Shown here in pieces: positions 25,810 through 55,213 of a stretch of DNA of 64,000 bases (the stretch's first letter is position 1; each line of letters begins with the position of its first letter). This DNA comes from Balanoglossus misakiensis (lineage: Eukaryota > Animalia > Hemichordata): contig CM082577.2 in assembly GCA_040954595.2 (NCBI GenBank), positions 3,181,703 through 3,245,702 on the forward strand. Direction: 5' to 3'. Position numbers and translations under genes: made by a program. The notes under the pieces are model-generated. The model saw nothing but the letters and a program-made list of their open reading frames with translations, did not search any database and was not told the origin of the DNA.

Positions 25810-28172
25810 ATGGCCGATCTGGATAACGCAAAACAGATCGCTTGTGAAACCATCGATAAGGCAGCAGCTGACCTGAACGCTTTAAGCCAAGAAATATGGA
25901 AAAACCCAGAGCTGTATTATGAAGAACACCACGCCCATCAAGTTCTGACTGACTTTTTAGAGAATCGTGGTTTCGACGTCGAGAGGAAGTTTGTTTTGGA
26001 CACCGCCTTCAGAGCTACGTTTGGTTCTCAAGAGAAGGGCGGCGTCAACGCGTGTGTGATCTGTGAATACGATGCCTTGCCTGAGATTGGACACGCGTGC
26101 GGACACAACCTGATCGCAGAGGCCGGAGCTGGTGCTGGATTGGGAATCAAGGCGGCTCTGGAAGCAGCTGGAAAACCACTGGGAAAGGTAAATTATCCCG
26201 TCGTTTACTTCAAAGTTGTCTGAATCCACCCGGCTTTACTGCTTGTACTATGTGTTCACGCTTATAATTTCTCTCCGTCGCAGTCTAACGAGTATTTGGT
26301 TATTTACAGTTGACGGTGCTGGGCACACCAGCCGAGGAGGCAGGTGGCGGAAAAGTGAACTTGATCGACGCTGGTGTATTTCAGAACATTGACCTTGCCA
26401 TGATGGTTCATCCAGCGAATAAATTAACCGTTTCCGCTCCTCCATTTGCGGCAAAAATACAGTAAGTGTGTTTAAAAAAATGATCATCCGGTATTACACA
26501 CTTTGACGTGTTAGTAACTGTCTCATACGGGCACATTTACCAGCACGCCCCCCCCCCCCCATTCTAAGAACGTACTAAAAATGAAAACTTATATATGGCA
26601 TGCTATTATTTGACTATTTTAATAGTAAAGATTAAAAGAAATAACTTCTCTAATATATTTCCATTTGACTGTGTTACAGCCTCGACGTCACATTCTATGG
26701 TAAGGCATCCCACGCAGCCTATGCACCCTGGGAAGGCGTCAACGCCCTGGATGCTGCGGTCATGTTCTACCAGAGCGTGTCAGTGATGAGACAACAGATG
26801 AAACCAAAATGGAGAATTCAGGGTAATGAATGACTTAGAGCCCCAATAGCTGCCACTTTCAGCTTTAATTCGATAAAATACTGCAGTGTTATCCTTAGCT
26901 GACAGACGACCCCATGTGCCCCCTCCCATTTTCTCTACGACCGCCCGCCATCTCCTGTCCCATCCCAGGGTACTATTTTGATATCCTTGCTTATAGGGAT
27001 CATATCTAATGGAGGAGCCAAAGCAAACGTTATACCGGAGAAGAGTGTTGTCAACTTCTCGCTTTTAACACCAACGCAAGCTGAACTATCAGAGTTGAAA
27101 GAAAGGGCACTGGCCTGTGCTGAAGGTGCAGCCAAAGCCACCGGGTGCAAGGTATTTTATTCAGTAATAAAACACCATCGGGTTACGGTATTCCACGAAA
27201 TTTTGGCCAATTCACGACATAAACGCACGCACGAGAGATTGATTAAACTGGTCATGAGCGACTGGTATACAAACATTGTATGCGGTCGTGGTTTATTTGC
27301 TATTATATTACTCCATTACAGTATAAATTCAAGTTTTGCATAGCTTCCAACCATGGTATATATCATGGACGCAGCACTTATTTCCGCGCCTCGGCCAATC
27401 GGATCGCTCAATTAGCACCGTCAATATGCACGCGTACTGGTAAAACCTTTCTTTAAATCTCAACATTGATTATTGGCATCTTAAAACAATTTGCACACAG
27501 ATGGAATACAGCTACAACACGTATTACGCCGACATCATCAGCAACAAGTCGCTAGTCAGTCTTTTCGTGGGAAATGCTGAAAAAATTGGTGTACAATTCA
27601 CACCTGAAGCTGAAGTGGACAGGTTGCAATTGAGCGCGTCATCTGACATGGGCAATGTGACCCACCACGTACCCGGCATCCATCCCACGTATGGCCTGGA
27701 AACGGATTCTTTCAATCACTCCCAGGGTTTTACAGTAGCGGCAGGTATGTGACGTTTATATTTATTGTTGTGCTTTATATTTTAAATCGGAGAAGCAACA
27801 TGGTGTGCATATATTGCCGTATGTCTCAAGGTGTGTAAGTTCTTGGTATCAATTTGTGAAAGCCAATATCATGCCTTCTTGAGAAAAATAATGCCACAGC
27901 TTAATTTATTTTCATGCAATTAGCTTTGACATATAAGTCAAGAGTGGCTCCTAATTATAACATTGAGTGTGTGCCTTTTGTTATTCACACATACAATTGC
28001 ACCTTATTCACTGTATGCATGTCTAGGTGCGCCGGAGGCTCAGAATCCGACCTTGACTCAAGCCAAGGCCATGGCTATGACGGTTCTTGATGTCTTCTTC
28101 AGAGGTGATGACGTGATGAAACAGATCCGTGAAGACTTTGAAGAGGACATGCGCAAGAGTGGAAACAAGTGA
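25810..28172 (+). CDS. PM20D2: Peptidase M20 domain-containing protein 2-like, copy B (head-to-head with copy A)
   Basis: Six exons (25810-26187, ~26310-26461, ~26680-26822, ~26997-27151, 27501-~27744, ~28028-28172) with the same motifs ([30 protein letters not shown]). Confidence 0.92.
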
Positions 28173-29003: not shown

Positions 29004-32000
29004 ATGGCACGATTCCTACCCCTGCTTCTGGTGGGGCTAGTGTTTTCGCCTTCTTCAAGTAAGTAATCGCAGTGGCTGCCGGGTGAATATCCTTTGCCTT
29101 ATACGCTCGACGCGAGTGCGATCCTGAAGACACCGAACTTTTCTGTTACAAGTTCAAGGTCATATATTTCTGAGTTGAAACTGTGGTATGACATATCGGG
29201 TTGCTACGCCAGCCATCGAAACTTTCAAGTTTAAGTTTTAGCTCTTTGGAATTGAGTGACGAACGAACCTATACTGTTTTAAGTGTCTGTTGTTGTCGTT
29301 CATACGTCATGTTGTTTTGTTTCTTTAGTTCAACAGTCATGGACGGTGACGCTTCAAACCCGACACAACTTTCGTACGTGTTATTGTCAACGTCAATGTA
29401 CCGTTAGACCGAGAGTGTAAACTTCGCGATGAGACCATTTTTCGGGTGATCAAAGCTTTTTTTCGGAACACCTAATGTTGGACGCGACGGGACATATATG
29501 TGTTGGTTGAGGGGGGGGGGGGGTTCCGTAACTGCAAGGGGGGGGGTCATTAGCGTATCAGTCGCCGATATCTATGAGACCACTTTTAAGTTTTATAATA
29601 AAACCTACAAAATGATAGTACACTAGCCACGATCAGCACAATAGACGTTTTGTTGTTGTTGTTGTTTTTTTTTAGCTCGGACTATATTATCATTTTGTTG
29701 GTTTTATAAGTTGTCATTTGTGGCATATATTACTACTTATTATGGAATACACATACAGCTGATACACTTAATTAATATATGCAACAAACATATGTGCTGA
29801 AGTGATATATGCAGCAAACTATATATTTCACCACACAATTTACACTTTAAATTATTTTTAGGTGACAAATATTGTAAACTTTATGATAGCACTAGTATAT
29901 GATCACTAGAAAAAATTTCTCATGTCAATAAAAAAAATAAACCTTTAAAAGTTCAATTTTATTATCTTGGCAGGTGCATCTGATGGTGTCTTATTCCCTA
30001 GTGGTAATGTCTTTCAGCCGGTTGAGTTAACTCCTGGTAGCGATGCGGAAGAAAATCATGAGGACCCTTTCAACACAGGAGCCGAGCTGTTTGACTCCAC
30101 GGGACAGGAAAACATGCGACTGTCACTTAACTACCACGTGAAAGATTTCAAATCCAGCTCCTCACAGTACTACAGAGCACACCCAGTGCTTTTACAGTGT
30201 CTGCAGAAAGTCAGAACAGCCATGTACAAGCAAGGAGAAAAGGTATAAAATAGGCACAATGTGTATGTGTGTTCAAAATCGCAAACCTATAGGGTCTTAA
30301 TATGCAAATAATATTATTAACCAATTAGAGTCAGCCATAAATAAAGTACCCCTATCTTACTTGTAACCAATAGCTCTTATTATACGTGTCACTCACTCAA
30401 AGGCCGAGTAATGTTGTCAGCATAGAACATGTGCTAAAAATAAAATACTAATTAAGTGTGAATATAAATGATGAAAATAAGAAGGCAGAGAATTATCAAA
30501 GCATTTCTGAATAATAGAAACTGTTGCTCATGGCCATCTCTCGAAGATAGCTGGTGATTAGCTGTCGTGTATTTTGATTGCAACTTCAGTCAGTTGCACA
30601 GCTAATCAATTTCCTTGAAGTTTTCTGTCTGGTGAATTATTCTTTCATCTAGTTTTTAATTCAGCTCAATCAGAATACAGGATAACACTTTAAATTTGTA
30701 CTCTAACAAACTGAGGACCCACATTTAGCAAGTGGTTCAGCCAGTGGTCAAAAGTGTGCCCCAATTTTATTGGGAAAGAAAAAAAATCAATAGATAGCAC
30801 ACAGAGTTTGTAGTCACGCATTGTTTGATAAATACCAATGGTTGCTTTGAATAACCTTTGTTTAACTCTATCACAAATCTATTGTGGTAATGAGATCATA
30901 AACTATGTTGGCTTCACTGTTTCCAAAAACAACACATTTGTGATTGATTTTCTGAACTGCAGTGGTGTGTAAAAATAGCCTTTCGGTACCACTGGCACTT
31001 TTCAGTTCATTCTGTAGCAACATGTGCATGTATGTAAATTTATGAAATCGTGTTCCATTTATAAATAGAAGATAAATAAACAAAATTAACATTTCATTAA
31101 ACGGCTAGTCCATGGCAACTTTGGCCAACCGAACAGAGATGTAAAATATAACAGAAAAAAACAACACTCAGTGACCTTTAAGCTTGTGTGTTTATACGTA
31201 ACCAATGCGTTGCTATGTAATGCTGGCTTTATCTGCATCGTGACTTGGTTGATCATTTGAGGGAAAAATATTTTAGTTGTACTGTTGATATGGGCTTTTT
31301 GTTGGAGCAGCTCAAATAAACTGGTTTTCGGAATTGGTCCACCACATATCCTGGACCAGGCTTTGTTTTCCAAAAGACGTTTTTGTGTGGAATAAGTGTT
31401 TCCTGGTTCATTAAACCTGTTTCACTGAAAAGAAATCTTCAGTTCCATTGTTGTCAATATTTGGACATCACCTAGTATTACACGGGGAAATGGCAATTGA
31501 GAGGTTGGACCAAAGTAAAATGGATATAAATTAAAGTCCATGCCCGTTTTACCAGTTTTTAAGTGGGAGACCAGAGAATGGTCTGATTACTGCAGGTTGT
31601 TCAAGTAATTGTCTTTTTTTCTTGCTTGCTCCAAGCTAACTAGATCGATGCCCAGACATACATCCAACATGTGTGCATTAGGAACTGAGATTCCAGACGT
31701 TCTGAATAAACAAGGAAATAAAAATACCTGCTTAGACATACACGCCATAGAAGTATTGTGAGCATTCACAATACATTACCTTGACCAGCTGTTTTCTTCA
31801 GCTTACACCGTCAGCTTACACCTTAAGTGAATTTACATATACAAGGCTGTTTGTTATTTGTACAAACAATTCAGCTTTTTGGCAATTACATTTCATACCA
31901 TCATTTAATTCTTTTTAAATTGTAAGATTTGAAAGAAGAATAGGTAGTTGGCTGTAGTGGAATTATGCAAAATTAAAGAGATTTTATACATAATATATAC

Positions 32001-35000
32001 ATGTAGAATTACAGAGATACATGAACCTAACAATTTCATTTTGATATCAACGTTTGGAAATAGTAAAAAGAATTTCCTTGCTTCAGTTATAATTGGCCTA
32101 CATGTGCTGACCAGGTGTTTTTTTTCCCCACTCTCACAGGTGGTGATAGCGACAGCCTACCAGACCAGAGACGATGTGTCCGGTTCAACCGACACACACA
32201 TGCAGTACTTGAGGTCCGGTTCTGCTGCAGAGATAGAATATAAAAATGGCGGCACTGGACTGAAGACTGCAGTGGACTTGGCAGATGTAGTTGTCAGACA
32301 GTGCATCACTCTTTTTCATGTAAGACCTGATTTTTTTGTTCATGCCTAAACCTTTCTAAGGGACTTTAAAAACCTGTACTACTGGTTTAACCTTTCACCC
32401 CTGTTTCCGCTGTAGAGGTCCAACTTTACCTTAGAAAACAATGGATTAGGACCAAACCATGTTGGCGAAAGGGTTTAAGGTCACTCTTTGATGCTAAAAT
32501 GTGTTCACCACTCTGTGGAACATTGCCGTTTTATTGCTTTAGCCTTTGTGTGTTGACACACAGAGTTGGATCTACCGCCAATCTGGATACACATACATGT
32601 ACATGTACACACATACACATTCATGGAAACGACCTTCCAAGACATTACAACGCAAACAAACTGTTTGAAAGTAGGCAAGTAGTCCTTTAAGTCTAGTGAC
32701 GTACATACATGTACTGTCCATGTACTGTCCGTGTACATATGATTCAACAGCTATCGAAGAAACAGTCCCAAAACCAGTTTAAACGTGATGACATGACAAT
32801 GCATTAGCTGTTGTTAAAATTTCATAATTATCTTGAACATTTTAAATACAGCCTCTGTATTTAAAACCCAGCAAATGAAATTTACGTGTCATTCAGCTTC
32901 ATCTTTTAGTAAAAATGCCAAAATCACCTTGAGAATTCACAGTTGCCTGCAAAATGAAAACAAACTCTATAGTTCCTGTTATCAAGGGATGATTATGGAA
33001 GTCAGGAAATGTATCATTGCATCCTGTGATAAGCCCGTGTGTGTCTCTAATATTGGTGACATGTTTGCAGGTTATTATGTCTCCGATACAAAACTCGCTT
33101 CCAGTGTGTGAGAATTGCAAATATAATCTGAGTGGTCATTTGTGCCTATTTGATAAAATCCTAGAGTAGACACACACATTTTACTTGTCTTGCTCCACTC
33201 ATCAGGTCACAAAACATTAATACACCACTGTGTATTTTATTCATGTTCCAGGGCATACAGCGAGATATTGGTCTGTATCTGTATGCAGATAAAGTCCATG
33301 TCCACATCCAGGGCCCTGATGAAGAGACTGCTTACTACGGTGCGGCCAGTGATGCGGACAAAACTGCGGCTGAGCTGGAGGCAAGAGTCCTTGACATCAC
33401 GGATGAAGTCTATGGTAAGGTCTTACTCTATTACCCCTCACCTGTACTATGGCACCCTCAAATTTATTGCTGAGAGTAACATAGTCCCAATTATCTGAAT
33501 ACCACATATTTCTTAGATTTTCATTGGTGAAAACATTTAAGGAGAGTTTTCAATCTAGCTTGGTTTGTCCTGGGCTGTCAGTAAGTTCAAGCTTTTTCTG
33601 AAATTTTATTTTATTTTGATTTTTGCAAATGTGTGACAATGAATTCTCACAGATCCTGCCAGGTCTCCAGATTGTGATCTGACTGAGCACAGTCTGTCAA
33701 ATGGAGATCACTACCCTACCAGTGTCAACTCGGCTGAGGAAGCGGTCGGTGCTTTGGACAGAAAAGTTACAAGAACAATGGAAGCTGATTTTGGCAGGTA
33801 GTGATACTCAGATTGTGGTTAAAAATTTTTGTGGCAGGACATTTGCGTAATCGTATCGGTTAAACAGTTTGAAAATTGTGCAGCTGGCAGTCTTGAAGTT
33901 TTATAGTGTATTTTGAGTGTCTTGACAGTGTTTTGTCTTATGAAACTCTTTTTGCCCCATTTTCCTGCAAAATCACATCCAGATCCACATCCTTCTCCTA
34001 CTGTTCAAGTTTCTTATGTTTTGCAAACATTAATAACACATACTTCTCTCTTCTCAGACTCATTCAGTATGCTGGTAGAAACATTGAATTTGAAAACTCT
34101 GAGAGATCGGCATCATGGTGTGGCAGCAGTGGACGTGCGTGCGTCGATTGCAGTGCAGGCATCAAAGGATCAACACCAAACAGCAGGTCTGTTGTAAAAA
34201 GATTTTACATCATCTGCAGGAGGGATGGTGACATTGATCAAAGCTATTTCCCCTTCCTCTTCCTGCACACTCATGCCTGGCACTACAATCATTTCAAACA
34301 ATTTACCAAGAGCCATTGTATACAGGCCTAATCTGATTTGCTATCATCGAATTGAAGATGACACATTATCACCAGCTATCTTGATTGCCATCCTTTTGTC
34401 CTGGTATCTTAAATCCTCTACTTTGTGTTAGTTATCTGTTGATCATGTGAGATAGATCTGATAATTGAATTTCCGCCTTCCCCCCCCCCCCCCTCCCCAA
34501 ACTGGTGATATGTGGTGAATGGTAATTGGTATGATCTCACTGATACATAATGCAAAATGATAATATATAATTTAGCCAACAGTATAGTTGAAAGGAAATT
34601 TTAAATGACAAACGTTGGCTGGCTAAGATGTGTGTTAACATTAACTATACCTTGAAATCAGAGATGACAAAATACATTTTCAATTGAACACAAATTATAT
34701 TGTCGTGACTATTTTTATGCTTAATTAACTTGGACTTCCTGGTGACTTTGGCCAATTGTCTCGTGAATATCGATCGAACCATAACCTTTGTCCTGATTTC
34801 TGCCACAGATGTTCCGATCGTGTGATGAGTACCAGGCTGAACAATGTCATCAAATATTTACAGATGATGGTCAGAAATCAGTGGCCGGGAGGTAAGAACA
34901 TCATAAATTATGAGTAGGTCACCAGGGGTAAAGGTGTGGACAGGTTAAGTTCAAGGGCACCTTGACATAAAGGACAAAGATTTCCTGTTACATTGAGCTG

Positions 35001-38000
35001 TTATTCTATGACAATTTTTTGTGCCTTGTACAATATTACCTCTTGTATGCATCCTCAAGGAAAGCAAATAAAAACAAAAATCTCCAACAGAAAAATTTAT
35101 TTTGAATCATATGACATTCCTCATATTAATTATTGTTTTCTTTCTGTTGCAAAGTAAAACTGAAGGTGACAGAAGCCTGGGACGAACCGTACTACGGAAG
35201 TCCCTACCCTGATGGAGACCATGCACCCGACTCTCTGCACTATGAGGGCAGGGCAGCGGCACTGACTGTTTCCGACGATGACAATGGTAAACTCACCAAC
35301 CTGGCGTCGTTCGCAATATGTTCAGGAATGGACTATGTACAACACAATGGTACGATGAATTAGGATTGCTTTATATCTGTAGGGTTTAATCCTTTCACCC
35401 CCAATTCCCTTTTCAAAGGTGCAACCTATCATATCCCCACATGAAGCCAAGCAGCCCTTGGAACTTTTTGACAAAATGCCTGATTTCTGTTTTCACATTC
35501 ATCATCTAATACTTTCAGGCGATCACATCTTTGTGGCAGTCAGGAAGCAGGATGGCCCCCAGCAGAGGCTTGTCCATTTCCCGATTGCTGACCTTTTGGC
35601 CGCCGAGGCTCCGGCCGATGACGTGGACATCTACGCCGTACCGGACGGCTACAGTGAGGAAGACAAGGCAGAAATGTACCTCTTTGACAGTGATCACAAA
35701 GTGAGTGGAAATTTTTTTATTATGATTACCTGGAACATTGTCCCAGCTGTGTCCAGCCTTGTAATTTGTATCAGCATTTGCAACCAATACGTTAATGTTT
35801 TAATTCCCGGGAATTTTGATTGAATTCCAGGAAGAGAAGAAACTGTCGAACAATGCCACGATTAAAGACTTCAAGTCACCTTCCAGTAGATACTTCAGAC
35901 TTAATCCACGATTGGTGGAATGCTATCAACACATTGTGACCAGAGAAAACAAGGCCAGGAAAGAGAATGGTAAGGCAATGTTGGTTTACCATGTGACTGC
36001 CATGTGACATTTCGCTTAATCTACGACAATCTCTGATTTGACACCATGAAATGTACTTGAATTCGTTCACATCAAATCATGGGTGCAGTCATAATTAAAG
36101 CCAAAAAGTGTAACTTAATTAATACGGTAATATCAAGTTGCCAATTTCCTTTTTTTTTCCAGATCCACCAATCAAAGTGATTGTCGACAGAGCCTACCTG
36201 ACCAACCCAGAACAAGACAGCCAGATTCCCGACGTCGATCCACGATACAACAACCATGTGGTAGGACGAGCTATGCAGATACATTACGACCTCTCCACTG
36301 GACTCGACCCCAAGCACTACACTCCGAACAGGCTTGCCAAGAGAGCTGTACACAAGTGCGGTCCCGTATTTGTTGCTAAACAGTACAGCATTGGCGTTGG
36401 TAAGGAATTGGTTCTTTGTAGTGAGCGTAGAAGGAAAATATCATTAGTGTTTTGTAATATAAAACACCTGAAGACATAAAAGTAGTACTACCTGCCCTGT
36501 AGTCTCAGTGCTGTGGTATATATGATATAGCTTTACATATCAGACATACAAGATGTACGTTAGCATATATTACCTGAATACTTCAGTATGTGTATAAATG
36601 GGTCATTCTGGTCTTTACATGCAGGTCAGGTCAGGGCCAAATATCACAAAGTTCAGTGTTGGGACGTGTTGAATGTGTGTGTGTGGGGGTGGATGCGGTA
36701 CAGTGCACAGGTCACTCATGTGGAACCTCTGTGAAAAAGACAACTTTCTCTCGCAGTGACATGCTCACAGTGTCTGCATTAATGCACAGAGACCTTGGTT
36801 ATTATTTGTAAGCGAAAGAGAACCGCACTGGGTGGAATGTTTATTGTTTTGTTTGTCGGTGCGTAGGAGGTACATGTAGCGTCTCACAGTGCGTCGCGTC
36901 CCACACATTGTTTTGAATGCAATTAAATCTTTTGTCTGGAATTGTAGTATCCTTATGCTACACAGTTTTCTAGGACAGCCAGTTTTGATTCCTGAGGGTC
37001 TAGTCTCGATTGTCGATACAGAAATTCAGCTTGGACAGAATTTACTTGTCTAAAGTTTTGTCTGGCTCATGATCCATTTTCTATATATTCACCAAACTTA
37101 CATTTACATTGGTTGAGTCTGTCATTTCCATTAAGGTGCGCCAGTACATACATTTTGTAAACAAGAAAATATAAAATTTGACCTTCTTGGTGCATTAGGC
37201 AAGTAGGTCAACAGATGTGGATCAGCCGAACTGTGAATTAATTGTCTCCAGCAGGGCACAATGACTAACCTACTACATGTATATGTGGTGTTTTCACACT
37301 TCACATACTTTGGGCCCTAATTAAGCTTATTGACGAAATAACAAACATATATTGTGAAATCTGTGAGAACTAACACCTTGTTAAACTGGAAAAATGTTTG
37401 ATGTAAACATTTGGTCTTTTCCCTACTGATCTGAGGCCCTAATAAACTGAACACCTGGACTATACAGATATGCATTTAGAAAAAAAAAATTATATAAATT
37501 TATTTTGCTTCCCCTATGTATCATATCCACATATCCATAATATCCATACTTTATTTTCCTCTGTCACTGTTTTGGCAGGCATCTATGAGGATTCTGTTTA
37601 TGTTGACATCCGCGACAACTTTGATGCGTGGGTGGAGTCGGAGGATTTACTGCCGGTTAATAAGACAGAAGATGAGTTCCGAGACGACATGGAGAAGTGG
37701 CTGCAGCGATCCGTCGGTGGGTTTTCTCAGCTCATTAAAATACAACAGAAACTCTTAATCTTCAACAAGTGAAATTTTTGTTGTAACTCGCATAATGTGT
37801 GTAACAATTATCACACTGTCTCTTGTGGCCTGCAGTCTCGGGACTTTCCTCAACTGGCCTTTATAGACAGGTGGCTTTATAGACAGGCCAATAAATGTAC
37901 ATTGAAAATTGCACAGGGATTGTAACAAAGTGGCCACTATATAGAGGTGAGGTGGCCACTGTACAGAGGTGGTCACTAACACAGGTTTGACTATCAAATG

Positions 38001-40768
38001 CTTCAGTTGCTTAATTGCCCCCCCCCCCACCCCATAACGGTTGATTGCTGCTCCAATAGCAACAACCTGTAGGTGTACACGTACATATTTTCACATATCA
38101 GCAATCATGACGAGAGATTATATTTGTTCCCCCCCCCCCCCCTCCTTCTTTGGTGTACAGAGGGCCGCGTCATTGACCCTGACAACCCGGAGCGTGCCTG
38201 TCGCGAGTCGGTGGAACCACAGAAACAGTCGCCAGGTTTCAAACACGAACACCCACAATCAGTGAGGCGACGCAGGTCTGCAGGACAGGACCCCAATGAA
38301 TGCCAGGCCAAGACTAACACCAAACATTGCGACACAACCAAAGAACACAGAAATACTGAGGTGAGGGCGTGGCTCTACATACTGTGAAATACTTTATTTT
38401 CACTGGGATTTATTTTTGCTGAAAACAAAAAAAATGTTGAATAATTCTGAGATTTTATATTCACTATTTCTTGTCAACTTGTGTGCAGAGAATAGGAAAT
38501 AAGAGTTTTCGCTCAGATTTTATTTTAGCAGAAAAATGAGTCAAGTGAAAAATAGTGAAAATAATGTCCTAGTGAAAATTAGGTATTCTACACTATGGGC
38601 CGCGTTGCTTCAGATACACTGTATAGTCACCGTTGTGAGATGGTGAGATAGATTTTCATTTCTTTGATGCGGTTTGCAATATCGCTGAAGAAACAGAAAG
38701 TGTGTTTTCCATCTGTTTTGAGAGTTGCACGCAGTGACATAATTTCTTTAATGTTCTGTATGAAACGGAAACTGGCAAGGCTCTCCAAATCAACCAGAAA
38801 ATGCATGACTTGCATTCCTAGGAAACATTACAATGCGATCCAATTAAGTTCAGCGATTAGATGGCAACCTTTGGTCATATTGTAGTGAGTGAGCAATTTA
38901 CCGCTGGAGTTGTTAATACACTGGGAAACTTTGTTTACAGTCGGGGGCTCCTGCATTGCTCTTATGTTGTGCGTTGTTGTTGTCCTGTTACAGGTGACCA
39001 AAATCTGGACCCAGGTAACTCGCAAGCATCTGTATCACGACGCAGATGAGGTTGAACTTGCCCTGGAAGGATGTTTTGGTGTCTGTAGTACCTGCCAATC
39101 AGGTGAGGCGTGTCACATGACAGTCTGCAACCAATGGCTGCAATACTCTGGGAAGGTCGACCCCCCAGTGTTTGCTGATTGGTCATGAAATACATGTAAG
39201 AGAATGTTTGGGTTGACTCAGACACAGGCTGTGCCTATAAGCCAAGGGATAAATTGATGCTAAAGTATAAATTTCTCGCCGCAGGTGATCTCTGGTGGGA
39301 CAAGATTGAGAACTGCAACGAGTTTCTCCACTGGGTTCCATTCGACTTCTACGAGCAACACGACGAGGTTGCGTTCTATGTGAGAGAAAACACGGAGTTG
39401 AAGAATGCTGCCTGCCGGGGGCATTGTCTCGACAAAGCACCGCTGTTTTCACTTGTTGGTGAGTTTCGTGATCCTCGCTGGCTGGTCAGCCATGTTGGTC
39501 ATTATTGTTGTACGTTGCATAGGCCATCCTTTTGAGGCAGGATCGTTCTTTGCATGTAAAAATATGAAAAATATCTAAATATTTCTCACACACTGGAGCT
39601 CTCTGTAAATCAAAATTTCTGTAGTCTTTCCTTCATATTGTTTCTCTCTGCCCCTAAATGCGATTTTCTGAAACAAGATGCTGGATGTTTTGACTCCCTA
39701 TGTTCTTATTTCACTGTTGAATAGCGCCCTCTGTGGAAGAGCTCTTCAGGCCTGACCCCCAGCGCAGTGTGAAGGAGCCCCTGTACTCTGTCGCCAACAA
39801 CCCTCTTCCAGTCTACGACCTCCTGTACAAACTCTACGCCCTGCACGCCACCGGTCAGATCAAAGTCTATGTCAAAGATCAGGCTGAGTTGTCAACTCTC
39901 CGAGGACCTCTGAAGGTGAGATGTTTGGCAGTGCCCTTACCAAATTCTCAGGCACAAAACACACTCCAGAGATTATTACACACCCCAAACAAACCACTTC
40001 CCAAAGTGGTGCCTTTCGGGTATATAGGCAATGACACCTGATTCTATAGCTATAATTCTATAGATGTCTATAGAACCTTTTTTGGAAAGAGCTGAAATGG
40101 GTTTCACCAGTTCGTCATAAACACAAATTAAGCGCTTGGCAGGAGCTGTACACAAAAAGGACTGACGGTAAAAAATCTGTTAATTGTTGGTGTCAGTATA
40201 ACGGACATGTTTTCATTCTGTGTGATGCGTCCAATTCCAGATGGCCATGATCCACAACAAAGCCGTGACGGAGGTCAAGATCTACGTCTCGGATCCGAAC
40301 AAAGTGGATTCCGTCACCAGTTCCATGGAAAACATGCTGCTGGAGTGGACCAAGTCCAGCTGCCCGGATCATTCCAGGGAGTACGTGCCTCCGTTCAGCA
40401 TTGAGGTCATGCCATCAGGTATGGTAGCTCTGTTCTATCTGTTGGTGTTGTTAAGGCCTATTTTTTATACTCGTGATACGACAGGCAATCTCTGAATTGC
40501 TGATTGTAGAGAAGATAGAATTTAGAGAAAATAATCTTCGGTGGTCTTTGGCAGATTTTGTAGGGCAGTCGCCTAAAAACTCTGTTGAGAAAGCTAACAA
40601 ATTTATATGTGCTGTAAACTATGTCATTGTATGTTTTAACTATTCTCTGAATTTTATTTGATGCCAGGTATCACCAAGCGAAGTGCCGAACATGAACTGC
40701 GAGAGGAGATGTTGGCCAACCGCAAAAACTGGGAGAAGAATTGGTTGAAGTCCCATACCTTGCTGTAG
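29004..40768 (+). CDS. Secreted ~955-aa protein: signal peptide - M15-like domain - Hedgehog N-terminal (Hedge) domain - M15-like domain - furin site - Cys-rich C-terminal region; no Hint domain
   Basis: 18 phase-compatible GT/AG exons: 29004-29058 ([18 protein letters not shown]), 29974-30242, 32140-32319, 33252-33414, 33653-33797, 34058-34186, 34809-34891, 35155-35349, 35519-35700, 35831-35969, 36163-36399, 37579-37716, 38161-38360, 38994-39102, 39285-39458, 39725-39915, 40241-40418, 40668-40768 (2868 nt, TAG). Hedge motifs: SDRVMSTRL...[19 protein letters not shown]...SLHYEGRA...[24 protein letters not shown]. Confidence 0.88.
32387..32478. mobile_element. piggyBac-like MITE, same family as 9545-9640
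   Basis: TTAA CCTTTCACCC...tgtagaggtc...GAAAGGGT TTAA. Confidence 0.6.
37820..37993. mobile_element. Tc1/mariner-type MITE remnant, same family as 13338-13499
   Basis: Shared internal sequence and right end cactaacacaggtttgacta. Confidence 0.65.
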
Positions 40769-42436: not shown

Positions 42437-45227
42437 ATGGCTGCCAATGACACACGAGTCGTCAAAGTGCTTGTTTTAGGGGACAGTGGGTAAGTGCGAT
42501 AACCCTACCAAATATAGCAGTTTTGTTATACGATCCTCACACACACCGCATTGACTCGTCACGTCCATATATATTTTAATATCATGGTATCCGCGTTTGC
42601 AAGCTAGTATATCGCATTTAGAACGGAGCCTCACTGCACTGGTGTTATATTTACGCACGTATATAGTACTATTGATAATATCAGTACGGTTATCTGTGCG
42701 CAAAATATGAAGGATATACCACAGTATATCCAGATACACTACAGTATATGTTGCCATGGTAATTGGAAAGCCCCGTGTTTTAATTCTGTATCCGATAGGG
42801 CCTCAGATACACATACTGTAAAATGCATTGACCGTACATATGTGTACGCCGGGTCACGCAGCGAACATGCGAAACGTTCCATATGTAGCGTACGATGTCA
42901 AGTCCTTCGACACGACAGCTTGAATATCAGGCGTTGTACAAGGTCGCCACAACTGCAATATGTTGTTTACAGTCATTTAGGCATTTTACGGTGCCATAAC
43001 CAATATTTTTTTATCAGCATATCATCGTTTTGGTCATCAAATATTACAATTACATAACCCATGAACCATTGCATATCTCGAATGGTGACTATTATTACGC
43101 CTCCCAATATGCCCTATTCAAATTTAAATACGCCTGACCTCTGAAATATAAAGACTTAGTGCCTTTACGGATATTCACAGTGCAGGCCTATATGTCAGAC
43201 GAGCGCCACACATAAGAGGATTGTGTGATATCGGCGGCCATGGCATTTCAAGAATTGAGCCGATTTGCATGAGATAACCTTTTGATGCTGTAACTGGTCA
43301 TTATCATACCAGTACTGGTACATGTATGTGATTAAACAATCAGTTGATTGATTGCCATACACACCCACCATTTCGATGAAGGGACATGGACAACGAGAGG
43401 TTCAGTGTGAAAGCCAATATTTTGAGGTTCCGCGCCGCCATTCAAGTTGGCATACGGCGGTCTCAATATAGAGGTAAAATCACAATGCAGCACCACAGGG
43501 AACGGAGCAAACTGACTGATCTGGGTGTATGTTGTTGTTGTTGTTGTTGTCTCATATCTGATCGATCCGAGCTGAACCCACCAAATAGACCAAATAGCTT
43601 TCATTCCCACACAAGAACCACACACATTTTTCAGTCGTCCACGTTCCTTTAAGTCTAAATTCTCTTTTTTCTGGTTTTGCGAATATAGGGTTGGAAAGTC
43701 TTCGCTTGTAGATCGCTACTGCCACGATAAGTTCAAAGACCACTACACACCGACCATAGGAGCCGACTTTGCTGTCAAAGAAGTTAAAGTGGGCGATCAA
43801 ACTGTTACTATGAAAGTAAGTAAAATTTTTAATAAAAGCGCCTAATAATGAAAAGTACGTTGTTTGCACGTTGAAAAATACTGACCACAGCCCGCAACCA
43901 GTGTACATGTTACATCTTGGACTCTTAAAATAACCAAATAATCGCACGTAGGAAAATCTGATGGTATGTGGTTTTACTTAATATGAGCTGAAAAAATTAT
44001 AGTTTGAATAAGATCGTAAACATTGTGGCTGCTGATATGATTATGTTAACATAGTGTACAGGTAGGTAGGCGGTCAGAAGGACAATTGGTATACATGTAT
44101 AGTATTTACACAACATATATTAATTGTGTGCCTAACTGAAATATGGCCGATCGACCCCGCAAATACTGGAAGTTGCTTCAATACACAGGCACAAGTGTGT
44201 CGGATAGTCTAGCCAGCGAAATTGGCCATTTACCCAACTGATTTCTGGACCACCCAGTGCACTTGTGTGGACGGCATCCTGGAAAAGCGGTGACAAAATC
44301 ACTCGAGACTTGTGATAATGCCTCTCTTTGTTCGACCGTAGATTTGGGACACGGCAGGACAGGAGCGTTACAGCAGTCTGGGCATCACCTACTATCGGGG
44401 AACACACTGCTGTGTCCTGGTCTTCGACGTGACGGTGCCGGAATCGTTCCGAGCACTGGACAAGTGGAAAGACGAGTTTGCGCTGCACGCCGACCCGACC
44501 GTCGCAGCGCGCCACACCTGCGTTGTCCTTGGCAACAAGGTGGACGTTGAACTTGAAGAGAGGAAGGTAATAAGGGAAAGTGATATTTTGATTGTAGTTC
44601 CATTGCCGTCTGAAAAAGTTGATTGCCATGGGTTTAAAGAACCACCAGCCTGGAAACCCAGGAGGAATAATTACAATAATGTTCTGCAAAAGACGTGTCT
44701 CTAGGGCGAAATATGAACGCTTGAGTGATTATTATTTTTTTTTACCAAAGGACTTTGCTTGAATAACAAGTAACCGACATGAGGAAAAATTACAATAATT
44801 CTGGCGTTACAATAATCCCATTTTAAAATGTATATTAGTTAAACAAGGCAAAGGCTTGAGTTATATCGATCGCGTTATATGATTTGTCCCTATAACATTA
44901 ATAACAAATTATCGAATGGCATGAAAAGCGCGATGATTTGACCACTTTTTGTCGCACTATTAATGCCATGTCTCTTTTTTTCTGCTATTGGCATTTTGAC
45001 TACAGGTGGCCACAGACGAGGCGAGGAAATGGTGTCTTGCAAACGGCGACATCCCTTACTTTGAGACGAGCGCAAAGGACAATACGAACATAGACCAAGT
45101 GTTCCAATTCATTGCCATGAACGCTGTTTTGCACGTCACGGATGAACCGGACATTCGGTCGGTCTCGGTGCAGCTGGTCGACCCGAACCTCAGAAAGAAG
45201 CGCCAGAAAAACTCCGACTGCTGCTAG
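42437..45227 (+). CDS. Rab7-like small GTPase, paralog 1 (most divergent)
   Basis: Exons 42437-42489, 43689-43815, 44342-44566, 45006-45227; [37 protein letters not shown]-terminal CC prenylation motif. Confidence 0.9.
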
Positions 45228-52494: not shown

Positions 52495-54242
52495 GAGAAG
52501 AACGATTCCCTTCGGGTACATTTGTAGACTTGTGGTGTTGTCCGAATCGGGGAGGAAGGGAGTGCGCACGTCTCGGAACGCCCATACCCTCATATGATAC
52601 ATTATTCACTACTCTGTTGCACACCTGTTTAAGGATGAATTGACAAAAGAACTGACCAATCAAAAACAGCCTAACGAGACTGCCCGACTCTGAGGCCAGG
52701 GCAAGATACCTTACTTGACAATGGACAATTTACATATTAGTTTCAGCAGGTGGACCTTGCTGTTGGTGGCAAGTATCTTTTTGCCGGGTCGTTTTGAGGT
52801 ATGGCAAGTAAATAAATATCGTTGTACTGGCAGTCCCCTTACACACGTGATGCAGAGCTGAACTCTATCTTTCAAATAGATGAATAGATTTAGAACTACA
52901 TGTACCTGTACAATAAGTCAATAACGGTTGATGCCTTAAATAGGTATGCAATGAACGGAATGCCCACGGGAGACCTTATTTCCTATAGTCTAGAGTACAC
53001 GATTAGCCTATTTAGAGTAGGTGAGACAAGTCATGACACTGAAGATATATAGCATTGCCATTATTGCTGTGTGACTGAAACGGCAACAGTAACTTGAAAT
53101 GCTCCGAGAGCACGCTATTGCACCCCCGCTATAGTACAGCCATGCCCTTTCGTTATTTGACCCCGTTCGATTCACACTCAGTGCGAGCGCCTTCATTTTG
53201 GCATTGAAGTGTATGGTTCAAGGTTTCGTCTTTTGTTAGGGTTTGGTCACAAACAAGGTGACGAGGTTTAATAGCGACAATATTTTTCATTTTTACATAC
53301 ATATATCATTATAAAGGTACTTAACAAGATTGTGGATACCGGGGTAATTTTCTTTTCGCATTCAACACACGGTTTCCCATCTCACTTCGATTCACACTAA
53401 GGGTCTGTTAAATGCTAAAAGTAACTGCATGGCAACGTGCCTTGGTTTTGTATCATGGCCAAATAGTCACAGGTCAATCAAACCTCAAACTCATTAAAAT
53501 AAAATTTCTTTCAAGAAAAAGCTCACCTCTGCCAGTACACCTGACGACTTTAATTAAAACGGTAATAATTCGCACATAGACAATAAAATATGGATAAAGT
53601 ACAATTTTATTGATGACACAAAAACACAACATATCAAAGCACAAGAGTCTGGAGAATATTTTATGCCTAGAAATTAAGTTCGCCTTCTAAAGAGATCTTA
53701 AAATCATGACATGCGTACGGCACCGTGAGTAATTTTAAAGCGTTGCTGAAAACTGATATTTCGGGTCAGTGAGTAACAATGTCGGAATGTTTTCCTTTAT
53801 GCGAAAAAAAATGCAATTTACTAAATAAATCCCATGCTTGGATTCGTACACGGTGACTTCACACGCACGCTGAATTATTAATGTACATTGCATCTATCAT
53901 AAGTAAAACGTGTAAGCGTAAGACAAGTGGTAACTAAATTTTCTAATACTAGTATGCGTCGATACAAAATTCTGAAAAGTCACGGTTGGAAAGAAATCAA
54001 CATCACACAAACTACACTGATCCGCTCATATAGCAATATTAGGTTGACAATGTCTACATGAATGATTAAAAAATATACGGCGGCAATATACCATGCTGAT
54101 CGCATCGTCCAGTTGAGGAACAGCAAATTTTGCCAGACAATTTAGAAAACCCGCACGTGAGGCGAAGCGACAGATTTACTTGCACGTCTATATGTTTGAA
54201 TATAACTCATCCGCCACGATACAATGCATGTAGATGGACGGC

Positions 54243-55070
54243 CTAATCTTGAGTTTCTGCCACCGTAGTCGCCTGTTCTTCCATGGTTTCGTCGCCGCCT
54301 TCCCCCTCCTCATCCTCGTCGCTCTTCCCGCAGTCTCCATGGTGACAGCAAGATGGCGGTGGGTACGGGTGCCAGGACGGCATCGGGGGAGGGTGGGGAA
54401 AACCGCCGAAGCCGTACCCTCCCATCATCATGGACGGGTGGTGGTGCAGCATCATCAGCATCATCATGTAGTGGTGCCACGGGTCGAGCCCGTAGCCGCC
54501 GAAGCCGTGCCCGAATCCGTGATGATGTGGGCCGCCGAACCAGGAGCCGCGTTGCGCGGGGGCTCCCCAACCGCTGTACGGACAACCGTGGTGTGGATCG
54601 GCGAATGCCGCGTGATGCGGGTCGCCCGGACACGTGGACTGATGATGGCCGTGGTGCGGATCTCCCCACATACCGCTCAGGAACGGGCAGCCGTGGACGG
54701 GGTCGGCGGTGTGATTCGCATCGTCGGAGGAGTGATGCGGATCTTCGCTATGCCCAGAGTGGGGTGCATCTTCGTGGGAACCGCTACTAGGCTGATGATG
54801 ATGATGATGATGATCACGAGGGGCGTCTTGGCAATGGTGATGGGGATCTCCCTTACCGTGCCGTCCAGTAGCCGTTTGGTGTCGCGGGGGATAACAATAA
54901 AACGGGCACCGACCACGCGAAGACGTTGCGAAGGGTGGTTGGCATCGGCCTGCTCCCCTTCCCAAGCGTCCTCGGCGCGAAATTCGGCCGCCTGCACAGG
55001 GACACTTCGCAGTGCACTTGCCGGTCGCGGCTGGAGACGTCTCTTCCGTAGATGCCGTGTTTGTCGCCAT
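54243..55070 (-). CDS. Intronless His/Gly/Pro/Cys-rich protein of unknown function (275 aa)
   Basis: GC-rich ORF in AT-rich surroundings, ATG in aaATGG context, TATA box (TATAAAAA on minus, ~55214-55221), repeated DPHH/EDxPH units, Cys-Pro motifs, acidic C-terminus. Confidence 0.75.
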   Translation of the reverse strand: MATNTASTEETSPAATGKCTAKCPCAGGRISRRGRLGRGAGRCQPPFATSSRGRCPFYCYPPRHQTATGRHGKGDPHHHCQDAPRDHHHHHHQPSSGSHEDAPHSGHSEDPHHSSDDANHTADPVHGCPFLSGMWGDPHHGHHQSTCPGDPHHAAFADPHHGCPYSGWGAPAQRGSWFGGPHHHGFGHGFGGYGLDPWHHYMMMLMMLHHHPSMMMGGYGFGGFPHPPPMPSWHPYPPPSCCHHGDCGKSDEDEEGEGGDETMEEQATTVAETQD

Positions 55071-55213
55071 TTCAGATCTTGTCTAATTTTCACCTCGGCC
55101 TATCTTCTTGTAGGAACCTCCAATTTTTAAAGCGGCTTTTCGTACTTCTTCTTCGAAGTATGTCGATTCTGTCGTGTCGCAACCTGACTGTGGCTGCCCA
55201 GGCACGACTCGCT

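Follow-up and report, generated by a model that had tools for sequence, protein, structure and literature searches.

Three consecutive LAS-fold domains, each apparently stripped of part of its zinc site, raise the question of whether the gene that encodes them is decaying or whether its whole family has given up catalysis, and of what such a protein might then do. We addressed this question for a locus of the acorn worm Balanoglossus misakiensis that lies in a 64,000-nucleotide stretch of DNA (the window; positions 3,181,703 to 3,245,702 of the forward strand of contig CM082577.2), where an original prediction, made from the letters alone, had placed a possible pseudo-peptidase with a Hedgehog-like (Hedge) domain at 32140..37716. 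By its orthology, its Hedge domain without catalytic residues and its lack of a Hog domain, the gene is a Hedglet, and it is an intact gene whose three LAS-fold domains all lack a complete zinc triad. Nucleotide positions below are those of the whole window, residue numbers refer to the 955-amino-acid (aa) spliced model, and all features of the gene lie on the forward strand.

The gene runs from 29004 to 40768 in 18 coding exons that form a frame without internal stop, and 17/17 introns are of the GT-AG type. Its protein is 81.6% identical across 936 aa to protein P0001 of Ptychodera flava and 44-46% identical, at full length, to P0004, P0005 and P0008; a tblastn search with P0001 matched exons 2-18 of the window in order. 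The interval of the original prediction stands as exons 3-12 of this gene, and it missed a fourth domain and the processing sites. In exon 6, a donor at 34219 was rejected as not GT, with 34186 used instead, and a candidate exon at 33065-33126 was dropped, since the orthologue has no corresponding segment. Exon 1 (29004..29058) encodes a hydrophobic N-terminus, where the top hydrophobic 19-aa windows begin at residues 1-8 (maximum 1.38), and the same windows gave no transmembrane-like segment elsewhere in the protein. This hydrophobicity points to a likely signal peptide and hence to likely secretion. Structural statements rest on an AlphaFold2 model built for the orthologue P0001 instead of the window protein (22-row alignment; predicted local distance difference test score, pLDDT, 86; predicted template modelling score 0.73).

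LAS enzymes bind zinc through H-x6-D and H-x-H motifs, which in mouse Shh supply H141, D148 and H183 (PMC6027127). Domain 1 (aa 55-222, exons 2-4, 30081..33413) has L132 (32209), E139 (32230) and H184 of H184-V-H186 (33297-33305) at these positions. The Hedge domain, domain 2 (aa 225-420, exons 5-9, 33658..35559), has H370 (35238), A377 (35259) and F411 (35530), and by profile alignment has also lost the catalytic glutamate at the Shh E177 position. In domain 3 (aa 458-641, exons 9-13, 35671..38168) the positions are filled by H545 (36255), Q552 (36276) and Y600 (37599), with Asp602 retained. Domains 1 and 3 thus keep one zinc ligand of three each. Every residue named in the original prediction is present at its place, and the incomplete triads that it read (L/E/H, H/A/F and H/Q/Y) hold when the register is checked against intact enzymes by profile alignment. 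Its reading of domain 1, which it took to keep the HVH motif, needs one correction: the profile alignments put solely the first histidine of HVH at a ligand position, since H186 falls at the aspartate position of M15A peptidases.

Domains 1 and 3 are of the M15A type. They are homologous to one another (profile probability 99.5), and hhalign related domain 1 to the intact M15A protein P0113 (probability 99.3) and domain 3 to a set of intact M15A proteins (99.8). Residues 429-626 of the P0001 model matched the Zn DD-peptidase 1LBU with Z 10.3 (root-mean-square deviation, rmsd, 2.4 Å over 119 aa), and residues 69-196 resembled the endolysins LysB4 and Ply500 at Z 6.3 and 6.1, a match that is weak taken alone. 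The M15A register was set by alignments to Hedgehog (Hh) and 1LBU, through stand-alone relatives with an intact H-D-H triad; P0113 aligns to 1LBU at the first two ligands, H154 and D161 (numbers counted from the alignment). M15A and Hedge profiles align weakly (probability 30), with the histidine of the M15A H-x-D on the second histidine of the Hedge H-x-H. Domains 1 and 3 therefore have the fold and profile of Peptidase M15A (1LBU; Pfam Peptidase_M15_3) but differ from these enzymes in standing in tandem within a predicted secreted animal protein, with one ligand of three each.

Conservation was scored in the window model plus 27 full-length homologues, giving 28 rows, with cluster duplicates left out and P0006, P0009, P0014, P0023, P0024 and P0025 excluded as partial or mis-modelled. 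These rows are not independent, and eight are from amphioxus. A complete zinc triad occurs in 0/28 rows for domain 1, 0/28 for domain 2 and 0/28 for domain 3. The first histidine, the aspartate and the distal histidine are found in 1/28, 1/28 and 17/28 rows of domain 1 (with glutamate for aspartate in 7/28), in 27/28, 1/28 and 0/28 rows of domain 2, and in 20/28, 1/28 and 0/28 rows of domain 3. Residues other than the ligands, and most cysteines, are strongly conserved. Because no row is complete in any domain, the loss of the triads is old and shared and is not decay. These orthologue counts lead us to reject a decaying pseudogene, the alternative that the original prediction had left room for, and they support its pseudo-peptidase reading. 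Across all 136 M15-type domains collected, 123 had all positions filled and 5/123 were intact, one being domain 1 of P0045 and the others the stand-alone proteins P0113, P0116, P0157 and P0165. Domains that directly precede the C-terminal domain outside the core set were intact in 0/35 cases, and 34/35 have an aspartate two residues past the third ligand.

The Hedglet family was named by Jagers and Roelink (2021, BMC Mol Cell Biol 22:22; PMC8052667; preprint 10.1101/2019.12.17.880039), who reported it in lophotrochozoans, amphioxus and echinoderms, called this distribution enigmatic and thought an origin from Hh plausible. By eye, P0008, P0005 and P0004 match the Hedge cores that the preprint lists for Acanthaster and Branchiostoma. 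For the middle domain, triad loss had been foreseen in part, as the Hedge core was already predicted to be non-catalytic (PMC8052667). In the parts of that work available, a Hedge core of about 105 aa is treated alone, with no mention of M15A domains, a cyclase-fold domain or processing sites, nor of acorn-worm members or sponge and choanoflagellate relatives. The Hedglet name appeared in the literature searched, which covers few subscription journals, solely in this paper and its preprint. A search of the ADP-ribosyl cyclase/Hedge and multi-Hedge literature, with the same thin coverage of subscription journals, found no description of the four-domain architecture in the portions of papers returned, PMC3482391, PMC3417536, PMC2362128 and PMC9695228 included. 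The two extra M15A domains, the CD38-like domain, the polybasic sites with the likely disulfide across the first, the sponge and choanoflagellate relatives and the intact stand-alone M15A relatives did not come up in these literature searches.

Two better-known families share the Hedge fold and were considered as identities. Domain 2 matches Pfam HH_signal, has the fold of the Hedgehog N-terminal domain (Shh, Ihh, Dhh and Drosophila Hh) and of BacHh, and keeps the first histidine and four acidic calcium residues. It differs from Hedgehog in being internal, in lacking a Hint/Hog domain, in the loss of the aspartate, distal histidine and catalytic glutamate, and in two insertions. Pfam gave no Hint/Hog match in P0001, in the window exons or in 22 aligned family members, and the C-terminal part has another fold; we therefore rejected a true Hh identity. 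Hedgling, from sponges, cnidarians and choanoflagellates, likewise lacks Hog beside its Hedge domain and has a peptidase motif that is incomplete (PMC6027127, PMC2362128). As described in the published text available, its Hedge domain is N-terminal and is followed by VWA, cadherin and EGF repeats, none of which was detected in P0001, and a Hedgling identity was rejected on this ground.

The fourth domain (aa 686-925, exons 13-18, 38301..40675) is predicted to have the fold of CD38, CD157 and Aplysia ADP-ribosyl cyclase. In a Foldseek search with the P0001 model, CD38 and Aplysia cyclase came next after the Hh entries (E 2.4e-4 to 5e-3), and VIA-align placed about 200 residues of domain 4 on the whole cyclase chain with Z 10.8 (rmsd 4-5.5 Å, 9-15% identity). 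A separate model of the 222-aa relative P0055 (pLDDT 78), compared with 48,161 chains without Foldseek, had Aplysia cyclase (Z 10.2), CD157 (9.4) and CD38 (9.4) as its top three; just these three cyclases reached Z >= 8, and the next chain was a bacterial ARC toxin at Z 7.5. An Atlas model gave the same first row (template modelling score 0.54), while scores in ESM Atlas feature searches were all below 0.8. Sequence profiles gave no such link. Pfam PF02267 (Rib_hydrolayse) had no match at E<=10 in 22 family members, and a C-terminal profile run against PDB sequences found no solved cyclase and weak glutamate-receptor matches alone. Searches of prokaryote genomes for a bridging PF02267 protein gave 0/3, 0/401 and 1/401, the single match lying under the cut-off in an open reading frame unrelated by eye. 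A complex prediction of domain 3 and its linker with domain 4, run without an alignment, scored 0.16 against a mark of 0.34.

The catalytic glutamate of this fold would be expected in the helix ahead of the conserved N869, a placement made from secondary structure and the general layout of the fold. Residues 857-873 of the window protein are acid-free, and no acid is conserved there; position 863 is K in 12/28, Q in 8/28 and E in 8/28 rows, with E in 1/45 wider rows. Published ARC enzymes have two glutamates and two tryptophans in the pocket (PMC12605009), CD38 has a TLEDTL motif and the catalytic Glu226 (PMC6368836), and Glu179 is catalytic in Aplysia cyclase (PMC2785692). The TLEDTL-like position of domain 4 is E or D in 17/28 rows. 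Although its model matches the entire chain of the ADP-ribosyl cyclases (Aplysia cyclase, CD38, CD157/BST-1 and bacterial Tox-ARC), domain 4 differs from them in its identity of just 8-15%, in having no Pfam match and no conserved catalytic glutamate in the expected helix, and in being fused behind dead peptidase domains. Domain 4 is probably without catalysis.

Conserved basic sites flank this domain. The first is a polybasic RRRR (aa 674-677, 38265..38276), a likely proprotein-convertase site by its conservation across the rows; a basic site is found here in 24/28 rows and is missing from two starfish, a crinoid and a sponge. The second, a dibasic KR (aa 926-927), has an equivalent in 26/28 rows and is followed by a 28-aa tail predicted to be helical (site and tail, 40676..40765), in which helices at 928-950 have low to moderate pLDDT in the P0001 model. 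In most aligned rows the tail (40682-40765) shows a conserved pattern of Arg, Glu and Trp, and it could be a released peptide.

Of the 20 cysteines in the window protein, several are lost in pairs: 498/579 in P0033, 292/302 in P0029 and P0031, and 785/789 in P0018 and P0032. Cys652 (38199..38201) and Cys904 (40361..40363) are each present in 27/28 rows and are both gone from the same row, P0018; in a wider set 38/45 rows are gapped here, 6 have both and 1 has neither. Given this co-loss in one sequence and the elimination of other partners, a C652-C904 disulfide across the first cleavage site is likely.

A profile search of 1.84 billion representatives gave 1111 proteins at E<=1e-3, 64 of them at E<=1e-30, and the best 150 were listed; names were obtained for 22 of 25 proteins and for 16 of the 30 clusters that were looked up. 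Four-domain members come from acorn worms, amphioxus, starfish, a crinoid, Owenia, gastropods and bivalves. The four-domain unit also ends P0033, a 2253-aa protein of the sponge Oscarella; in P0044, from the choanoflagellate Craspedida sp. UC1, the domain order is the same, with an M15_4 domain in front. Two further choanoflagellate proteins, P0057 and P0058, end in the dead-M15 and domain-4 cassette without a Hedge domain. The sponge and choanoflagellate records may include contamination. Vertebrate, insect and cnidarian names are missing among the named matches listed, though this does not prove that these groups lack the family.

Among the matches listed, P0113, P0116, P0157 and P0165 are the intact proteins closest to domains 1 and 3, and they score above the cut-off for Pfam Peptidase_M15_3. 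P0113, P0116 and P0157 have hydrophobic N-termini by eye; P0157, from the foraminifer Bolivina, is fused to a C-type lectin, and P0165 to a phage lysozyme. All four have intact triads and an N-terminal extension like that of domain 1, and their sequences make them candidates for eukaryotic bacteriolytic enzymes. P0113 has matches of 29-52% identity in nine bacterial genomes. Among the matches listed, the intact Hedge domains nearest to domain 2 occur in fusions with amidase, glucosaminidase or lysozyme domains (P0076, P0130 and P0142). Other modules in the wider family, of cell-wall or digestive type, are M15_4 in P0044 and P0045, M23 in P0057, trypsin with PLAT in P0033 and lipase in P0088.

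Our preferred reading, to which we give a probability of roughly 0.4, is that the Hedglet is a secreted, cleaved, two-chain, non-catalytic protein that binds the bacterial cell wall. The protein would leave the cell by way of its hydrophobic N-terminus and would be cut at the conserved basic sites around domain 4, with the halves presumably held together by the C652-C904 disulfide. The M15A domains and a calcium-binding Hedge domain would bind stem peptides without cutting them, through clefts that came from peptidoglycan peptidases and have lost their ligands, and the protein might in this way capture or sense bacteria in mucus or body fluid. The predicted cyclase-fold domain would serve as an output module that binds either a nucleotide or another protein and does not turn over NAD. 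We favor a cell-wall binder because peptidases of the peptidoglycan type, joined to lectin, lysozyme or amidase domains, are the nearest intact relatives of the LAS-fold domains, and ancestry and domain company make peptidoglycan binding plausible. Non-catalytic peptidoglycan recognition proteins are a precedent for binding without cutting. Named hosts of the family include choanoflagellates, a sponge, amphioxus, acorn worms, bivalves, Owenia and Lingula, and many of the named hosts feed on bacteria or particles.

Several observations weigh against this reading. Predatory starfish and grazing abalone retain the gene too. Mean column conservation is higher in domain 4 (0.59) and the Hedge domain (0.57) than in domains 1 (0.47) and 3 (0.51), and the main function may therefore lie outside the M15A clefts. 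The M15A cleft is presumably lined by an arginine, R138 of 1LBU by alignment; its position holds R or K in 16/28 rows of domain 1 and R in 4/28 rows of domain 3, and in the window protein the two residues are Q116 and L526. The third ligand of domain 3 is Tyr or Phe in 28/28 rows, an aromatic residue that may fill the cleft. As for domain 4, E854 is acidic (E or D) in 28/28 rows and lies near the expected catalytic helix, and the catalytic glutamate was placed in that helix by secondary structure and the general layout of the fold.

The strongest competitor, which we hold to be possible though doubtful, is that the protein is the precursor of an endogenous signal or matrix component: a convertase would free two ligands of animal receptors, the cyclase-fold domain and the 28-aa tail, and the LAS-fold domains would be their carrier or scaffold, with no bacterial ligand. 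The conservation of both basic sites fits such a precursor, as does the standing of domain 4 as the best-conserved part, and every deep relative ends in the dead-M15 and domain-4 cassette. Published work on teneurin describes a dead domain of toxin origin that serves as a signal (PMC3482391, PMC3417536). Yet the first basic site is absent from echinoderm and sponge rows, the likely C652-C904 bond would hold domain 4 in place after cleavage, and no receptor is known.

The Hedge domain raises another possibility, that the protein is a decoy of the Hh pathway, with a calcium surface on its Hedge domain that would bind Cdon/Boc, Patched or Hhip. Residues 231-417 of the P0001 model superpose closely on the N-terminal domain of Hh (HhN; Z 22.1, 35-39% identity; rmsd 1.4 Å over 148 aa to DhhN). 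The calcium residues of Shh are E90, E91, D96, E127, D130 and D132 according to the Jagers preprint (10.1101/2019.12.17.880039); the window protein keeps four acidic equivalents, E286, D317, E348 and D351, which are present in 25, 22, 23 and 23 of the 28 rows, respectively. The original prediction had rightly seen that the acidic TEAWDE segment, which carries E348 and D351 (35172-35183), is retained, and Drosophila Hh is published as signaling without a triad (PMC6027127). These similarities are offset by the remaining calcium positions, which are S285 and P353, the proline at the D132 position, and by two insertions in the calcium loops, a Cys-rich one of about 26 aa between E286 and D317 and one of 8 aa after the acidic segment. 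Domain 2 has lost the zinc pocket to which Hhip binds, lies inside the chain and has no counterpart of the Ptch1-binding N-terminal segment (Jagers preprint), and a Hedge domain in this architecture occurs in a choanoflagellate and a sponge, organisms that lack Hh. The suggestion of an Hh-pathway partner, also made by the original prediction, thus has the four kept calcium residues behind it and these several features against it, and we consider it unlikely. It is plausible that domain 2 binds calcium, with the surface used by the partners of Shh altered. An H370/H405/H409 set, which could form a remodelled metal site, is present in this domain in 12/28 rows.

It is likewise improbable, in our judgment, that domain 1 has a remodelled metal site made of E139, H184 and H186, or a site shared with a neighboring domain, and has kept its peptidase activity in acorn worms and some molluscs. 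This E-H-H set is found in 7/28 rows and H-x-H in 14/28, with H184 and H186 two residues apart on one strand of the P0001 model. P0045 has a three-LAS-domain layout in which domain 1 keeps H-D-H, and we consider it a possible catalytically live member; it also suggests that domain 1 was the last to lose its triad. The set is missing, however, from all amphioxus and starfish rows, and the cleft arginine is Q116 in the window protein.

An active domain 4, working as an NAD(P)+ glycohydrolase or cyclase whose catalytic acid has moved to E854 or D851, appears quite unlikely. The predicted cyclase fold is full-length, and the invariably acidic E854 is joined by an acidic D851 in 24/28 rows and by R775 in 25/28. 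Such an enzyme would need the two glutamates and two tryptophans of the published ARC pocket (PMC12605009), though, while the TLEDTL-like position is acidic in just 17/28 rows and the expected catalytic helix, with its variable position 863, has no conserved acid. D851-x-x-E854 resembles, and may be, a helix-start capping box. Finally, a decaying copy or a wrong gene model is scarcely credible, for although the model was built from genomic sequence and homology rather than from transcripts, it has canonical splice sites, an open frame and high orthologue identity, and the same substitutions recur across phyla.

The relatives also bear on the age of the family. In a quick, unrooted tree of 82 Hedge domains, built without Hedgling, the single animal Hh (from Capitella) joins intact bacterial-type domains with a support of 99 in the Shimodaira-Hasegawa-like approximate likelihood ratio test, and 27/28 core rows form a separate Hedglet group (support 96). 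Because sponge and choanoflagellate relatives exist, descent of Hedglets from Hedgehog is argued against. A bolder proposal, which we put forward as speculative and rather doubtful in its entirety, is that Hedglets are pre-animal and older than Hedgehog, that they were assembled from bacterial cell-wall peptidases and a CD38-type enzyme with all four sites disarmed, and that in choanoflagellates and marine invertebrates they act as disulfide-linked two-chain sensors, relaying wall binding through a nucleotide-binding cyclase-fold domain. If true, this would reveal an unrecognized bacteria-sensing system and give a view of how the Hedge fold first entered animals.

So far Hedglets have been the enigma of one paper, known by their Hedge core alone; the full anatomy now lends itself to specific tests. 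It is this anatomy, foremost the CD38-like domain, together with the pre-animal range, that adds most to the triad loss. The sponge and choanoflagellate relatives and the intact foraminifer M15A relatives bear on the route by which eukaryotes acquired the Hedge fold and on how many times they did so, and a second CD38-fold branch in animals and choanoflagellates, undetectable by sequence, would extend a fold known from CD38, CD157 and Aplysia cyclase.

Proteins with other layouts were also observed. P0034-P0040, P0042, P0047 and P0048, a paralogous group of 0.9-1.5 thousand aa, have at least two dead Hedge domains before the M15-plus-cyclase cassette, and one protein of this multi-Hedge group is from the bivalve Sinanodonta. 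P0052, P0065, P0071, P0073, P0078 and P0084, of 2.7-4.3 thousand aa, end in the dead-M15 and cyclase-fold cassette, and three of them have fn3, Ig-like or cadherin-like matches.

Elsewhere in the window, overlapping stop-free frames of 298 aa (forward strand) and 279 aa (reverse strand) at 54234-55130 lie in its most GC-rich patch (52%); they have no Pfam match, and the patch is possibly a repeat. The upstream neighbor of the Hedglet gene, at 25810-28172 on the forward strand, encodes an amidohydrolase (peptidase M20-like) and contains introns; two of its exons match TIGR01891 under its cut-off. Downstream, at about 42440-44570 on the forward strand, is a gene for a small Ras-family GTPase, with one exon that matches Pfam Ras and a Rab-like sequence by eye.

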